Shown piece by piece: positions 2,504-7,000 of a stretch of DNA of 64,000 nucleotides (positions within the stretch are counted from its first letter, which is position 1; each line of letters starts with the position of its first letter). Origin of the DNA: Escherichia coli. Lineage in GTDB: Bacteria; Pseudomonadota; Gammaproteobacteria; Enterobacterales; Enterobacteriaceae. A program made the translations under genes and the position numbers. The stretch lies in the NCBI RefSeq assembly GCF_036507355.1, contig NZ_AP027877.1. The stretch is one strand, 5' to 3'. Under the pieces are notes generated by a model that worked only from the letters and a program-made list of their open reading frames with translations, was not told the origin of the DNA and made no database searches.

Positions 2504-2530
2504 TGTGTACCAGATGTGTACCAAACTATT
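2504..2530. repeat. Left boundary repeat of gtr prophage remnant (putative att site), contains GYGTACCAAA motifs
   Basis: tgtgtaccagatgtgtaccaaactatt here versus tgtgtaccaaattgcgtaccaaactaa at 6974..7000 (about 22 of 26 identical with one gap). Confidence 0.5.
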
Positions 2531-2556
2531 ATTTCTGAGCGTACCAAATATTATTT

Positions 2557-2853
2557 ATGGCTATAAGCGACACAAAACTGCGTACTATTTATGGTAAACC
2601 ATATTCGGGCCCACAAGAAGTGGCTGATGCCGATGGCCTCAGCGTACGAATTTCACCGAAGGGGGTCATCCAGTTCCAGTACCGCTATCGCTGGCATGGC
2701 AAGCCTAATCGACTTGGGCTTGGTCGATACCCATCCCTGTCTTTGAAGGATGCCAGACAGATCACTGCTGACTTGCGAAAGCTCTATTTCTCAGGAACGG
2801 ATCCACGCACCTATTTTGAAGAGAAGGTGGAGAACTCCATGACGGTACGTTAA
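2557..2853 (+). pseudogene. P4/P22-type tyrosine integrase, N-terminal arm-binding domain only (truncated)
   Basis: 98-aa ORF resembling integrase N-termini (compare intact integrase at 23789..25066); no catalytic domain follows. Confidence 0.6.
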
Positions 2854-2902
2854 TTTCTTCCGGTGTGAGCGTTGGGGAAGTCCATTCCTTGGGCGCGCGG
2901 AT

Positions 2903-3739
2903 TTGAATACTGTGGAGTTCATCAGTGAAGCACCTAAGTTTCTTATGTGTTTCAGTTCTAATTCACCTATAGACGTATGGGACACCGCTGATTTATTTAT
3001 TAGTGAATGCTCAATGTTTGCTGGAGATTTTGCGGTAAGAACACGCACAACACTTGGTGGGATGGGTGGAACAGACCAATTCGCGGGTTATCCGGTTATA
3101 ATTTCAAATAGCGTTTTTGATGCCATCAACGGTACTGCTTTTGATATGGAGAGTCTAGCTTACGCTACCATCAGCGGTAACATTATTAGTGCAGGGAGGA
3201 TAAACAATAGTCGTGGAATTAATATTAAAGGGGCAAGAAACCTAACATTTACAGGAAACACTATCACTTACTGTGGTGAGTTCGGCATGGTATTGGAAAA
3301 TGCTGAACAATGTTCTTTGTCTAATAATATATTCAACGGAAATAAGACTGGTGGGCTATCGTTGGTAAACTGTAAAGAAATATCTGTTATTGGCGGCTCT
3401 ATGGGTACGTCTTATATCAAAGGTGGGTACTACGTGCAACCACTTGGGATCACAGACCCTGCTGATAACTGTAACGGCATAACCATCAATGGCGTTTCTT
3501 TCGATAGCGATATGACAACCAAGATTTACCTTAATACATCGGAAGAGCGCAAAAACCGTATTATAGCTTGTCTAGGTGTTAATGATACTCAGACGACTTA
3601 TCAAAACCGTGGATCTACTGCGCAGCGCCCTACAGCACCAGTCAGTGGGCAGATGTATTATGATACAACGCTAGGTCTTCCAATATGGTATAACACAGTA
3701 TCATCTGAATGGAAGAGGGCGGATGGTACAAGTGTATGA
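2903..3739 (+). CDS. Phage tail fibre / tailspike-like protein, probable C-terminal remnant
   Basis: 278 aa with G/N/T-rich beta-helix-like repeats (NNIFNGNKTGGLSLVN, ITINGVSF) and tail-fibre-like C-terminal motif (YYDTTLGLPIWYN); lies between integrase fragment and gtrC as in P22-like phages. Confidence 0.5.
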   Translation: MNTVEFISEAPKFLMCFSSNSPIDVWDTADLFISECSMFAGDFAVRTRTTLGGMGGTDQFAGYPVIISNSVFDAINGTAFDMESLAYATISGNIISAGRINNSRGINIKGARNLTFTGNTITYCGEFGMVLENAEQCSLSNNIFNGNKTGGLSLVNCKEISVIGGSMGTSYIKGGYYVQPLGITDPADNCNGITINGVSFDSDMTTKIYLNTSEERKNRIIACLGVNDTQTTYQNRGSTAQRPTAPVSGQMYYDTTLGLPIWYNTVSSEWKRADGTSV

Positions 3740-3770
3740 TAATGCGGGTGCTTAGCACCCGCTTATTTAA

Positions 3771-5237
3771 TTAATTGCAGTTGAATGTAATGTTTTTATC
3801 GTAAACAAAAATCTTCTTATCTCCGACGTCAATAACCTTTGATGGATTACCAATCTCTTTAATTGTTATATTTCTCATAACCTCATCATCTGTAATTATG
3901 AAATTTCCTCCGCGCTCATACCAATAGTTTTTTGACAACCATTTATTGCATGCAAGTATATTCAAACCTCGGTTTACATCAATCGGAGCAATTGATATGT
4001 CTCCATCTATACTTGCTGATGAAGCAAACCAGAAAGATGCATACCCGTTTGTGAGGTTATTCTGCCTTACAGTGTGTTTTATCTGATTTATAATATCATT
4101 AGAATTGTCTTTTTTTTCATGCATATAAATAGAACAAAAGAGAATAAATGTTGTAACAACCCCTAATGCGATGAATTTCCACCCTCTGGAGTTGTTAGAT
4201 CTGCCAATAACAACAGGTGCTAGTATAAAAAATGGAACGATATATCTTATAGTCCATTCATCTATTGGACGGTTACTTGCAAGGTATGCTGGTATCATTA
4301 TAATACAAGCTATACATATAGCCATATTGACCATGGAGGTTTTGAATATTTCCTTTACTGACATTGCAACTAATATAAGAAGTAAAATCATTACAACAAA
4401 ACAAAAAACAGAAATAAGCGCTGTAATATCAGAAGGTGGTTTGCCAAAGAAGAAAGCTCCACTGTATAGGAGGAATCCTTTTACGAATAAGTATAAATTA
4501 TTCAGGATATCATCAAATGCAACAAATGTTGGATCTGGAACGCCTGGCAAAATGTACCAGTTATGAGCTCTTGCGTACATGGTCATAATTTTTGATGCAA
4601 CATATGCAAATATAGTTGCAACTAGTATGATCAGATTTTTTTGGCTTTTGGTTTTTACTATAAAAATCACTGATGATATTGCTACTGGTGCAATAATGAG
4701 TAGCTTTATGATGTCATCACTGAAACAAGCTAGAACTAACACTAAAATATAAAGAGATAGAGAAATTAACGATCTTGTTTTGGAAAAATTGTCTAACATT
4801 ATGAAGCAAAACAACATGGATACATATGTGCCGACATGTATCACAGGTATTAATACGTTTAATACTGCAAACCCAGAAGGCAGCGCAACGCAAAATGAAA
4901 TGGCCCATAACGATGAAAGCCTTTCTTTTGAAAGATAAAATGTCATCAATGTAACCATTGAATACATAATTGCCGGTATGCAGTATGCTTGGTACTGTCC
5001 GTACCAGAATACCTTTGAAGCAAGTCCGTACCATATTATGTCTGTAAAATAGAATGATACTGTAGAGAGATACCATCCACTAAGCGTCCAATTTCCGTCC
5101 GCAATGTCCTTACCCTCAAGAAGTCCAGAAACAGCATCCGAACTTGGCAAAATCTGTTTTGAAATCGAGGCGTAGAAGAAAGTCAAGAATATAAATCCAA
5201 TGATATATATGGCTGTTTTTTTTATATTTAAAGTCAT
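3771..5237 (-). CDS. GtrC-like serotype-specific O-antigen glucosyltransferase (polytopic membrane protein)
   Basis: 488-aa highly hydrophobic ORF immediately downstream of gtrB; AT-rich codon usage typical of horizontally acquired gtrC. Confidence 0.7.
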   Translation of the reverse strand: MTLNIKKTAIYIIGFIFLTFFYASISKQILPSSDAVSGLLEGKDIADGNWTLSGWYLSTVSFYFTDIIWYGLASKVFWYGQYQAYCIPAIMYSMVTLMTFYLSKERLSSLWAISFCVALPSGFAVLNVLIPVIHVGTYVSMLFCFIMLDNFSKTRSLISLSLYILVLVLACFSDDIIKLLIIAPVAISSVIFIVKTKSQKNLIILVATIFAYVASKIMTMYARAHNWYILPGVPDPTFVAFDDILNNLYLFVKGFLLYSGAFFFGKPPSDITALISVFCFVVMILLLILVAMSVKEIFKTSMVNMAICIACIIMIPAYLASNRPIDEWTIRYIVPFFILAPVVIGRSNNSRGWKFIALGVVTTFILFCSIYMHEKKDNSNDIINQIKHTVRQNNLTNGYASFWFASSASIDGDISIAPIDVNRGLNILACNKWLSKNYWYERGGNFIITDDEVMRNITIKEIGNPSKVIDVGDKKIFVYDKNITFNCN

Positions 5238-5238
5238 T

Positions 5239-6153
5239 TTACTTATCCTTTAGAATGTATCTTGGTCGTTGCTTAACTTCAACATAAATTCTTCCTATAT
5301 ACTCTCCAAGAACTCCTATGCCTATTAACTGAACTCCACCAAGAAACAATATTGATACAATGATAGAAGGGTAACCTGGAACACTATTTCCAAACATCAA
5401 TTTATCAGCAATCATCCATGTTCCATAAAGGAATGATAAGGTTGCCACAAACAGGCCTATATAAGTCCACATGCGCAAAGGGAAAGTAGAAAAGCTAGTG
5501 ATCCCTTCCAGCGCTAAGTTCCAGAGCTTCCATCCATTGAACTTTGTGCTTCCTGCAACGCGTTCTGCTCGCGCATATTCTACGACATCGGTTCGACCAC
5601 CAACCCAGCTCAGCACACCCTTCATAAACAGGTTTCGTTCTGGCATGAGCTTAATGTTTTCTACTACTTCGCGAGACATGAGCCGGAAGTCGCCAACATT
5701 TTCTTCTATCTTAGGGTTGCTGATTTTGTTATGAAGCTTATAGAACCACTCAGCAGATTTACGCTTCAGCCTGCTGTCAGTGGAGCGGTCAGAGCGTTTA
5801 GCCAGAACCATATCTGCACCGGCCTGCCATTTCTCTATCAAGTGAGGAATAACTTCGATAGGGTCTTGCAGATCAACGTCAATCGGGATAATTGCCTCCC
5901 CGGTAGCATGGTCCAGGCCTGCGAACAGGGCGGGTTCTTTGCCGAAGTTACGTGTGAACGACAGCGAAACAACAAGCGGGTCGGCAACAGCAAGCTCGTT
6001 GATAATTGATTCTGTAGCGTCTTTGCTGCCATCGTTTATGAAGACTATCTCGACTTCATGCTGCTGAAGCCCTTCAAATTCGCGCACGGTTTTATAAAAA
6101 ATAGGTATCGTGGCCTCTTCGTTAAAGACCGGAACGACTAAAGAAATTTTCAT
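5239..6153 (-). CDS. gtrB: Bactoprenol glucosyltransferase (GT2 family)
   Basis: 304 aa; N-terminal GT2 signature ([19 protein letters not shown]) and two C-terminal TM helices; 4-bp overlap with gtrA. Confidence 0.85.
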
Positions 6154-6512
6154 TTCGCATCCCTAAAGACAATGAACTTTGAATAGACGAAACCGCACAC
6201 CAGGCTGATGGCGGAGAAGGTGATAAGAGTGACAATTGGAGGAAGTGAACATCTATCAGCAGCCCATCCAACAGTAGCACTGAGTGTTCCCATGAACCCG
6301 ACATATAACATGTAGCGCATCGTTGTAGTTGATGCTTTGAATGTGAATTTTGCATTCGCGAAGAAGCTAAAACTCACAGCCACAACAAAACCTGCGAAGT
6401 TTGCCAGAGCCTGATTGGTATGCGCGGCATAGATACAAACACCAAAAACCACCCAGTGTATAAGGGTGTTCAGCACACCAATAGAGGTGTACTTTGCAAA
6501 TAGCTTTAACAT
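6150..6512 (-). CDS. gtrA: GtrA-family flippase subunit
   Basis: 120-aa four-TM protein heading the gtrA-gtrB-gtrC operon. Confidence 0.8.
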
Positions 6513-6973
6513 TTCTTCTATCAGCTAATAATCAAAGGCATGAAGTCTATCATCCAAGTCTCAATCGATCGATACTTGCTGTAATTGCTGAGACAAAACT
6601 GAGACAAACAAAGCTTTGCACTGGTTTGCAAGTCTTTGTGTCATTCGATAGTTAAGGTGGATCCCTCCACCTTTTCATCAAGCCAATCCGCCCACCACTG
6701 CATCATTTCTCTGCGCTTAACGTAGCGGATGCCTCACTATCACACGGTGATGGTTCATTACTGCTTTGTAGAATGGATAGAGAACTGAGGATTAAAAGAT
6801 ATCCCAAAACCCCAAAATCTCATCTTTAGGATTTGCAGAAAGGGAGGCGTGAACAGATACCTGCGCATGAAGACGGAACTAGTCCAGATGTGATATTTGT
6901 GGTGATCACATACATCATCAACGATGCTCGTTATGGTGAGTTTGATGACTACCCGATGAAGTGAAAATTGTGT

Positions 6974-7000
6974 TGTGTACCAAATTGCGTACCAAACTAA
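6974..7000. repeat. Right boundary repeat of gtr prophage remnant (putative att site)
   Basis: Imperfect direct repeat of 2504..2530. Confidence 0.5.

Follow-up and report, generated by a model that had tools for sequence, protein, structure and literature searches.

A stretch of 64 kb of Escherichia coli DNA (contig NZ_AP027877.1 of assembly GCF_036507355.1; "the window" hereafter means this whole stretch) carries, inside the 5' end of the exonuclease gene sbcB, an element of 4,721 bp which is very probably the immobilised remnant of a temperate Sf101/P22-like podovirus, and which has kept a gtrABC operon likely to act on the O-antigen of the O77 group (O17/O44/O73/O77/O106). As a feature of the genome this is routine, since what is seen is a converting prophage in decay, at an attachment site already known, which keeps its lysogenic-conversion genes. 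The main interest lies in the specificity of the third protein of the operon, GtrC, within the O77 group.

The limits of the element are given by the 13-bp sequence CGTAATCGTGAAA, which occurs exactly twice in the window, where 0 copies would be expected by chance. The following features define the insertion:

951-2375, minus strand: sbcB (exonuclease I, 474 aa), from the listing of open reading frames (ORFs), the body of the gene from the att core onwards being chromosomal
2330-2342, plus strand: attL core CGTAATCGTGAAA, an exact 13-mer, with the attB of E. coli G4/9 on its left flank and the attP of phage mEp234 on its right flank
7051-7063, plus strand: attR core CGTAATCGTGAAA, with the mEp234 attP on its left flank and the G4/9 attB on its right flank
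7064-7301, minus strand: original 5' end of sbcB, now displaced (codons 1-12, with the ATG at 7103-7105), and its native upstream region, separated from the gene
7302-8474, plus strand: dacD, from the ORF listing

Measured between the two copies of the core, the insert is 4,721 bp long; it lies inside the 5' coding end of sbcB and was acquired by site-specific recombination. The first-pass annotation had placed an insert of about 4.5 kb at 2504-7000, in the intergenic space between sbcB and dacD, and both its size and its position have to be corrected. The published attP core of phage 2851/Sf101 (PMC4159516) has the same sequence, and so has the annotated attP of mEp234. In fact, the four-way comparison of the att sites is exact, attL being composed of attB-left, core and attP-right, and attR of attP-left, core and attB-right; the 45 bp to the left of the attL core are G4/9 sequence and the 45 bp to the right are mEp234 attP-right with 1 mismatch, attR being the mirror case. 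The insertion is a Campbell-type integration at attB in sbcB, with the phage supplying a surrogate gene start. The first 11 or so codons of sbcB in the window (2343-2375) are phage-derived, the N-terminus of the protein being MTDTDKQPTFLFHDY in the window and MMNDGKQQSTFLFHDY in G4/9, with one other substitution only in the rest of the protein. The original start MMNDGKQQSTFLFHDY is still readable at 7064-7105 (minus strand), inside an ORF at 7037-7171 (minus strand). A promoter scan upstream of the rebuilt sbcB gave no convincing sigma-70 site.

The empty site is found in the closest genome, that of E. coli G4/9, where sbcB and dacD are adjacent and uninterrupted and which is 99.9% identical to the window over 7051-31000 (100% over 7051-7400). 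This comparison of the sbcB-dacD junction among relatives bears out the earlier claim that the region is an acquired prophage remnant. Moreover, the whole arrangement is colinear over 9 kb, gap-free and with 99.88-99.94% identity, in four independent draft assemblies, and is therefore not an assembly artefact; contigs with the remnant belong to GCA_016660925.1 (DADCDS010000013.1), GCA_905398585.1 and GCA_905398635.1. A search of 5,426 complete E. coli genomes did not find it, 80% or more of the query being covered nowhere in them. The same sbcB site of E. coli 23CRST013 (NZ_AP045773.1, 2041968-2084018) is occupied by a complete myovirus-like prophage with a different gtrC, coding for a glucosyltransferase-domain protein, and with gtrB and gtrA 91% identical to those of the window; several gtr-carrying phages therefore use sbcB.

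The phage sequence next to the two cores belongs to an integration module of the 2851 type, of which the following parts remain:

2343-2556, plus strand: P' arm of a 2851-type attP, with the surrogate sbcB start and three GYGTACCARA motifs (2505-2514, 2516-2525 and 2539-2548)
2557-2853, plus strand: truncated integrase gene, made of codons 1-96 of a 393-codon 2851/mEp234-type tyrosine integrase, then 2 out-of-frame codons and a stop
6587-7050, plus strand: P arm of a 2851-type attP, with a humD/umuD-like remnant and two GYGTACCAAA motifs (6975-6984 and 6987-6996)

Window positions 2330-2846 are 99.0% identical to mEp234 from attP into int, and positions 6587-7080 are 94.3% identical to the mEp234 sequence upstream of attP. 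The integrase fragment (98 aa) matches a PHROG integrase family and, on residues 1-97, an NCBIfam integrase domain, and its DNA is 99% identical to the 5' end of the mEp234 int, which is 1,179 nt long when complete. It belongs to the type of phages 2851, Sf101 and mEp234, with a P4-like N-terminal arm-binding domain and reading away from attP. Of the full-length 393-aa integrase only codons 1-96 are present, and there is no excisionase gene (xis) in the element; lacking both the catalytic domain of the integrase and xis, the element is therefore fixed and unable to excise. The GYGTACCARA motif occurs five times, always inside the element, against 0.36 copies expected in the 64-kb window. In the functional phage mEp234, attP is surrounded by the same five copies at identical offsets, of which two belong to the P side and three to the P' side, immediately before int, and from this pattern they may be putative arm-type binding sites of the integrase. 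The repeats rich in GYGTACCAAA to which the first-pass annotation had drawn attention are thus real, but their proposed role as bounding direct repeats was rejected, since they are internal motifs of the attP arms, also found around the attP of the free phage mEp234, and it is the 13-bp core which bounds the insert. In the P arm, a 43-aa ORF at 6833-6964 matches the C-terminus of HumD/UmuD-like S24 peptidases (E 5.7e-11) and is a pseudogene fragment; at the corresponding position of E. coli 23CRST013 the annotation gives a frameshifted S24/S26 peptidase.

The integrase stub is joined to what remains of a tailspike gene:

2846-2847, no strand: junction left by the deletion, where int codon 96 meets tailspike codon 291 and 1 nt of microhomology is seen, from a three-way alignment of the window, the mEp234 int and the ST3 tailspike
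2846-3739, plus strand: C-terminal 297 codons (ORF 2903-3739, 278 aa) of a 587-aa P22-like tailspike, representing the parallel beta-helix, receptor-binding part

The identity with the mEp234 int stops at 2846, where the tailspike match starts, with one shared nucleotide at a single clean junction; this is a simple deletion junction. The fragment corresponds to residues 291-587 of the tailspike of E. coli ST3 (nt 871-1764) and matches the PHROG tail spike profile (E 1.7e-65, profile positions 370-626) as well as the TIGR03804 beta-helix repeat, while the full-length version of the L012 locus carries the Pfam domains Head_binding and Beta_helix. Because the head-binding domain is missing, the fragment is non-functional. 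The block formed by the tailspike fragment and gtrCBA (window 2846-6640) is 98.9% identical to a block at thrW in G4/9, and it matches, with 98-99% identity, the end of P22-like prophages which are complete. Such prophages, with capsid, gp4, gp10, needle, ejection proteins and the 587-aa tailspike, are found in E. coli ST3 and PS_131_S11, where this block forms their last part, and the full versions in ST3 and at the L012 locus combine a tailspike with Head_binding and Beta_helix domains with P22 capsid, gp4, gp10 and gp16. In the element itself, the P22-like virion is represented by the C-terminal 297 codons of the tailspike, with no other structural genes, and a P22-like (Lederbergvirus-type) ancestry would follow from the relatives just named. 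The first-pass annotation had read the region as the two ends of a P22-type prophage after loss of its middle. The order of integrase fragment, tailspike fragment, gtrC, gtrB, gtrA and att does hold, with the single junction at 2846; the integration module, however, is not that of P22. A P22-type integrase was rejected on account of the match of the int fragment and of both arms to the 2851/mEp234 type, shared with Sf101, and P22-type Salmonella phages match gtrA and gtrB only.

Downstream of the tailspike fragment, and convergent with it, lies the operon that gives the element its interest:

3744-3762, no strand: GC-rich, terminator-like hairpin between the convergent ends of the tailspike fragment and gtrC, with an 8-bp stem (7 GC pairs) and a T-run
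3771-5237, minus strand: gtrC, coding for a 488-aa polytopic membrane protein with a predicted GT-C fold (glycosyltransferase fold type C), a putative serotype-specific glucosyltransferase
5239-6153, minus strand: gtrB, coding for a 304-aa bactoprenol (undecaprenyl-phosphate) glucosyltransferase of family GT2 (PHROG GtrB, E 2.8e-179 and 1.9e-166, full length)
6150-6512, minus strand: gtrA, coding for a 120-aa small membrane protein of the GtrA family, a putative undecaprenyl-phosphate-glucose flippase (PHROG GtrA-like, E 1.1e-70, 120/120)
6513-6646, minus strand: gtr upstream region, homologous to that of gtrA in the Shigella phages SfII, SfIV and SfV

With GtrA in first and GtrB in second place, the operon has the order of a GtrABC system, the gtrA homolog of Salmonella Carrau carrying Pfam PF04138. 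The genes gtrA and gtrB overlap by 4 nt, and some 540 bp separate gtrA from the core of attR, the element still having both att arms and the int fragment. The best NCBIfam matches of GtrB are polyprenyl-phosphate glycosyltransferases (PgfS, ArnC), below the curated cut-offs. All the genes named in the first-pass annotation (sbcB, dacD, the N-terminal fragment of the integrase, the C-terminal fragment of the tailspike and gtrC-gtrB-gtrA) were recovered by the ORF listing and profile searches. GtrA, GtrB and GtrC are all full length, with 1-7 aa substitutions with respect to the copies in G4/9, ST3 and M7424 and with neither frameshift nor stop; GtrC differs from these copies by 1-3 aa (2 aa, at 99.6% DNA identity, for M7424), so that the frameshift of gtrC which had been considered at first did not appear on alignment. 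The DNA of gtrA and gtrB is about 77-81% identical to that of SfI/II/IV/V, P22-like Salmonella phages and epsilon34 (about 80% for gtrB in SfII/SfIV/SfV), and the match to the Shigella Sf phages upstream of gtrA reaches window position 6637. The G+C content drops to 33-39% over 3600-5400, against about 50% in the flanks. A terminator-like hairpin with a T-run is found on the minus strand at about 6600-6640, upstream of the presumed gtr promoter (free energy -13.5 kcal/mol). The 54-bp stretch 6587-6640, which contains this hairpin and T-run, is common to the gtr block at thrW in G4/9 and to the left arm of the mEp234 attP, and may mark the limit of a module, at which mosaic phages recombine. 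Salmonella gtr operons show a Dam/OxyR phase-variation arrangement; upstream of gtrA in the window there are only two GATC sites, 93 bp apart.

The most economical history is that of a mosaic Sf101-like phage with a single later deletion. Such a phage, carrying gtrABC, would have been integrated by its 2851-type tyrosine integrase at the 13-bp attB inside sbcB, exchanging the first 12 or so codons of the gene for a phage-borne surrogate. One illegitimate deletion, from int codon 96 to tailspike codon 291, would then have removed the excisionase, regulation, replication and lysis genes and all the remaining virion genes, the lysogenic-conversion cassette gtrA-gtrB-gtrC surviving intact. A phage of this kind has been described, since Sf101 combines an Sf6/P22-like virion with this int-att module and with an O-antigen modification gene in the same slot (PMC4159516). 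It is rather unlikely that the arrangement goes back to recombination, at or near sbcB and perhaps through 6587-6640, between two elements, one a resident prophage of the 2851 type and the other a P22-like phage carrying gtr, and that the loss came afterwards. The 54 bp at that place are common to the gtr block of P22-like type and to the P arm of mEp234, a sign that these modules do recombine there; the cassette is known at attLambda, thrW and sbcB, on podovirus-like and myovirus-like prophages; and no intact parental phage at sbcB with this gtrC was seen among the complete E. coli genomes. Nevertheless, the int/tailspike junction, with its 1 nt of microhomology only, is typical of a simple deletion, Sf101 shows that such a combination of virion, int-att module and modification gene exists (PMC4159516), and the formation of the mosaic could have preceded integration.

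By analogy with the Gtr systems of Shigella and Salmonella, GtrB would make undecaprenyl-phosphate-glucose on the cytoplasmic face of the inner membrane, GtrA would move it across this membrane, and the GT-C-fold GtrC would transfer the glucose, in the periplasm, to one defined sugar of the O-antigen repeat. A tblastn search of GtrC against 50,697 phage records gave no match; the lack of similarity to Shigella or P22 GtrC in these records is as expected for the variable component of Gtr systems. The AlphaFold2 model of GtrC, built from a 20-sequence alignment (pLDDT 85.5, pTM 0.86), has many transmembrane helices and a C-terminal alpha/beta domain. When this model was compared with the PDB by Foldseek, the top 15 matches were all GT-C enzymes (STT3/PglB, DPY19, AftB, ArnT), which are polyprenyl-phosphate-sugar-dependent transferases, the best of them with E 6.5e-6 to 3e-2, probability 1.00 and a TM-score of about 0.5. 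The invariant acidic positions include D34 (at least 90% of sequences) and D174. The third protein is thus predicted to be the polytopic GT-C-type glycosyltransferase which is typical of a GtrABC system. Furthermore, in Salmonella Carrau an 89%-identical protein is encoded by the third gene after gtrA-gtrB, next to proA. It is because of the predicted GT-C fold and this synteny that the gene was assigned as gtrC, the sequence databases labelling the protein as hypothetical.

The distribution of this gtrC was searched for in the 5,426 complete E. coli genomes. It is present in 24 of them, always with at least 99.3% identity, while the O17/O44/O73/O77/O106 wzx/wzy genes occur in 93. At least 18 of the 24 carriers are among the wzx/wzy matches listed, and M00057 and CNREC-004-43 have been reported as O77g:H18 (PMC13188871, PMC13094856); at least 20 of the 24 have an O77-group cluster, against about 0.4 expected by chance, and none was seen with another O-type. 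The cassette is located at attLambda on P22-like prophages (ST3 and PS_131_S11), at attLambda on a myovirus-like prophage (M7424) and at thrW (G4/9), the attLambda copies adjoining ybhB in all three strains. The carriers cover three or more att sites and phages of two morphotypes, which argues against simple clonal inheritance. G4/9 itself carries wzx/wzy of the O17/O44/O73/O77/O106 family, in a cluster located about 15 kb beyond the left edge of the window; a literature search on the serotype of Symbioflor G4/9 found nothing. The gene calling of this G4/9 cluster is fragmented, and 15 nt out of 2,155 are missing with respect to other genomes, owing either to assembly indels or to G4/9 being a rough probiotic strain. 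Neither the O44 strain 042 nor the O17 reference K12a, both with an O77-group cluster, has this gtrC type. The same gtrC is found in CNREC-004-43, included in the strain of the 2025 French outbreak of haemolytic uraemic syndrome (HUS), which belongs to an ST69 lineage of Shiga toxin-producing/enterotoxigenic E. coli. The outbreak isolates did not agglutinate with any of the five antisera for O17, O44, O73, O77 and O106, and their relative C165-02 was typed as O73 (PMC13094856). The 15 newly sequenced O77g strains were typed in silico only, except for the O17 reference K12a.

Outside E. coli, the 89%-identical GtrC cluster comes from the Salmonella serovars Carrau and Florida, which are of serogroup H (O:6,14) in the Kauffmann-White scheme, and the O:6,14 O-antigen is reported to have the same backbone as the O77 group. 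Distant GtrC homologs (30-33% identity) come from serovars of the mannose-rich serogroup C1. Because of this distribution of the gtrC type, the acceptor of GtrC is most likely the Man-Man-Man-GlcNAc (mannose and N-acetylglucosamine) backbone of E. coli O17/O44/O73/O77/O106 and Salmonella O:6,14. The view of the first-pass annotation, that the specificity of GtrC cannot be inferred from sequence, was thus too pessimistic, since comparative genomics ties the gtrC type to the O17/O44/O73/O77/O106 cluster and to Salmonella serogroup H. On these comparisons, this gtrC is probably a glucosylation determinant of the O77-group backbone, and neither the O44 determinant nor that of the O17 reference. 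Side-branch genes have been located for O44 only (PMC7685785), the O73 side-branch enzymes being unidentified as of 2023 (PMC10304059). A tentative possibility, which we would not call probable, is that this GtrC is the missing determinant of one glucose side-branch in the O17/O44/O73/O77/O106 group, either one of the O73/O106 branches or a serologically unrecognised sixth pattern; if so, gtrC typing would split the "O77g" genomes into real antigenic types.

Several observations weigh against the reading of the cassette as a working determinant of the O77 group. GtrC has no significant Pfam or NCBIfam match, that is, no family at sequence level. Scans for sigma-70 promoters upstream of gtrA gave none that was convincing, so that expression of the operon can only be presumed. 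The O77-group count covers 20 of the 24 gtrC carriers, the other 4 lying outside the matches listed, and several carriers form clonal sets (JNE, PRO_A, M-strains, HYM1), so that fewer than 24 separate lineages stand behind the association. The strain's own O-antigen cluster lies outside the window, and the strain is assigned to the O77 group only because it is nearly identical to G4/9; a search with the exact Gnd protein of G4/9 led to other genomes and not to the contigs with the remnant. In the annotation of G4/9, wzx and wzy are frameshifted; a relative could therefore be rough, which would leave the cassette without substrate. The analysis establishes the site of integration, the empty site, the deletion junction, the intactness of the genes, the GT-C fold of the GtrC model and the association with the O77-group cluster; we infer the expression of gtr, glucose as the sugar transferred, which position accepts it and which O-type the window strain has.

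Taken to its end, this line of thought would make the cassette a silent relic, its ORFs intact by chance or recent acquisition, and either unexpressed or left without a substrate in a rough or non-O77-group strain. The want of a clear promoter upstream of gtrA would fit, as would the decay of the rest of the element (truncated int and tailspike, humD remnant) and the state of the O-antigen cluster in G4/9, the nearest complete genome, with its frameshifted wzx/wzy and fragmented gene calling. Such an outcome is nonetheless distinctly unlikely, as all three gtr genes are full length and show conservative substitutions only with respect to functional-looking prophages, four other assemblies have kept the same remnant free of indels, the sequence upstream of gtrA is conserved in converting phages of Shigella with active gtr operons, and the frameshifts of G4/9 may be sequencing errors.

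It is still less likely that GtrC acts on another glycan (another O-antigen, the enterobacterial common antigen or a periplasmic glycan), or with another sugar, and that the O77-group association merely reflects a phage host range set by the tailspike. The association is indeed correlative, and the copies of the cassette in ST3, G4/9 and the window go together with a tailspike which would by its own specificity limit the phage to certain O-antigens. In M7424, however, the prophage with gtrCBA is myovirus-like and lacks that tailspike, and the strain nevertheless belongs to the O77 group. In addition, GtrB has about 80% DNA identity to the glucosyl-specific GtrB of Shigella, and close homologs of GtrC exist in Salmonella serogroup H, with its reportedly shared backbone. 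In all the Gtr systems studied, the O-antigen modified by the converting enzyme is the very one that serves as phage receptor (PMC7685785). An immobilised prophage remnant with a gtrABC operon directed at the O77-group backbone is thus the reading kept here.

The practical value of these results lies in serotyping. O17, O44, O73, O77 and O106 cannot be separated in silico, because the differences between them are made by glucosyltransferases encoded outside the O-antigen cluster. A concrete candidate is now offered, in the form of a predicted GT-C-fold GtrC family which has no Pfam model, is annotated as "hypothetical protein" and is almost confined to O77-group E. coli. The candidate gtrC is present in the emerging O77g:H18 ST69 HUS lineage, with close relatives in Salmonella O:6,14. 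The element also illustrates gene repair by a phage that integrates into a coding sequence, carrying as it does a surrogate sbcB start, and it shows that conversion cassettes can outlive their phages.

Elsewhere in the window, a defence reverse-transcriptase gene of the DRT4/DRT6 type lies at 17794-19601, in a small tRNA-Asn island, and is interrupted by the insertion sequence IS1 (18827-19601), absent in G4/9; the G4/9 homolog (PADLOC, E 2.4e-148) is itself split into 431 and 87 aa. A copy of IS3 at 31570-32802 has the opposite orientation to that in G4/9, and from this place on the two sequences are no longer colinear. It adjoins an ORF (32796-35189, minus strand) coding for a 797-aa N-terminal piece of an IatC/YeeJ-like inverse autotransporter, which suggests an IS3-mediated rearrangement or truncation at 31570-35189. 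Finally, the ORF at 52030-53253 matches the first 358 of the 564 profile positions of the diguanylate cyclase DgcQ (E 2.3e-194), and the gene may be truncated or frameshifted.

Compared with known systems, the element shares with the gtrABC operons of the Shigella phages SfI, SfII, SfIV, SfV and SfX and the Salmonella phages P22 and epsilon34 a three-gene operon next to attP, with a variable third gene coding for a polytopic membrane glycosyltransferase, and the same mechanism would be expected (PMC7685785). It differs from them in being integrated at sbcB by another type of integrase, whereas those phages integrate at thrW or argW, and in its presumed acceptor, a mannose-rich backbone instead of the rhamnose backbone of Shigella. 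Unlike that of the known cassettes, its GtrC has no Pfam domain and no detectable similarity to the proteins of the 50,697 phage records. As regards E. coli, the summaries of Wang et al. 2007 given in PMC7685785 and PMC10304059 describe the O44 gtr prophage of strain 042, at attLambda, for which a Glc (glucose) side-branch was proposed. According to these summaries, it would be prophage-borne like the element, with a side-branch of the kind which distinguishes the members O17/O44/O73/O77/O106. The 042 prophage is at attLambda and the element at sbcB; moreover, 042 is without this gtrC and not among the 24 carriers, and the two gtrC genes are therefore of different types. The gtr remnant of Salmonella serogroup H (Carrau and Florida), located by proA/thrW, is similar in its gtrA-gtrB-gtrC order, in its 488-aa GtrC (89% identical) and in being short and without phage structural genes, although in another species and at another integration site.

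The closest described analogue of the element is Sf101, with gtrABC in the place of oacB. Sf101 is a complete, inducible, Sf6-like serotype-converting phage of Shigella flexneri which integrates at sbcB and carries the O-acetyltransferase gene oacB (PMC4159516). Together with the 2851/mEp234/HK544 module, it shares with the element the 13-bp core CGTAATCGTGAAA in the 5' end of sbcB, and the attP arms and the 5' end of the integrase gene are 94-99% identical between mEp234 and the element. Whereas Sf101 is complete and inducible, the element lacks all that once lay from int codon 96 to tailspike codon 291 and is unable to excise, but the layout of tailspike, O-antigen-modification gene, attP and int is common to both.

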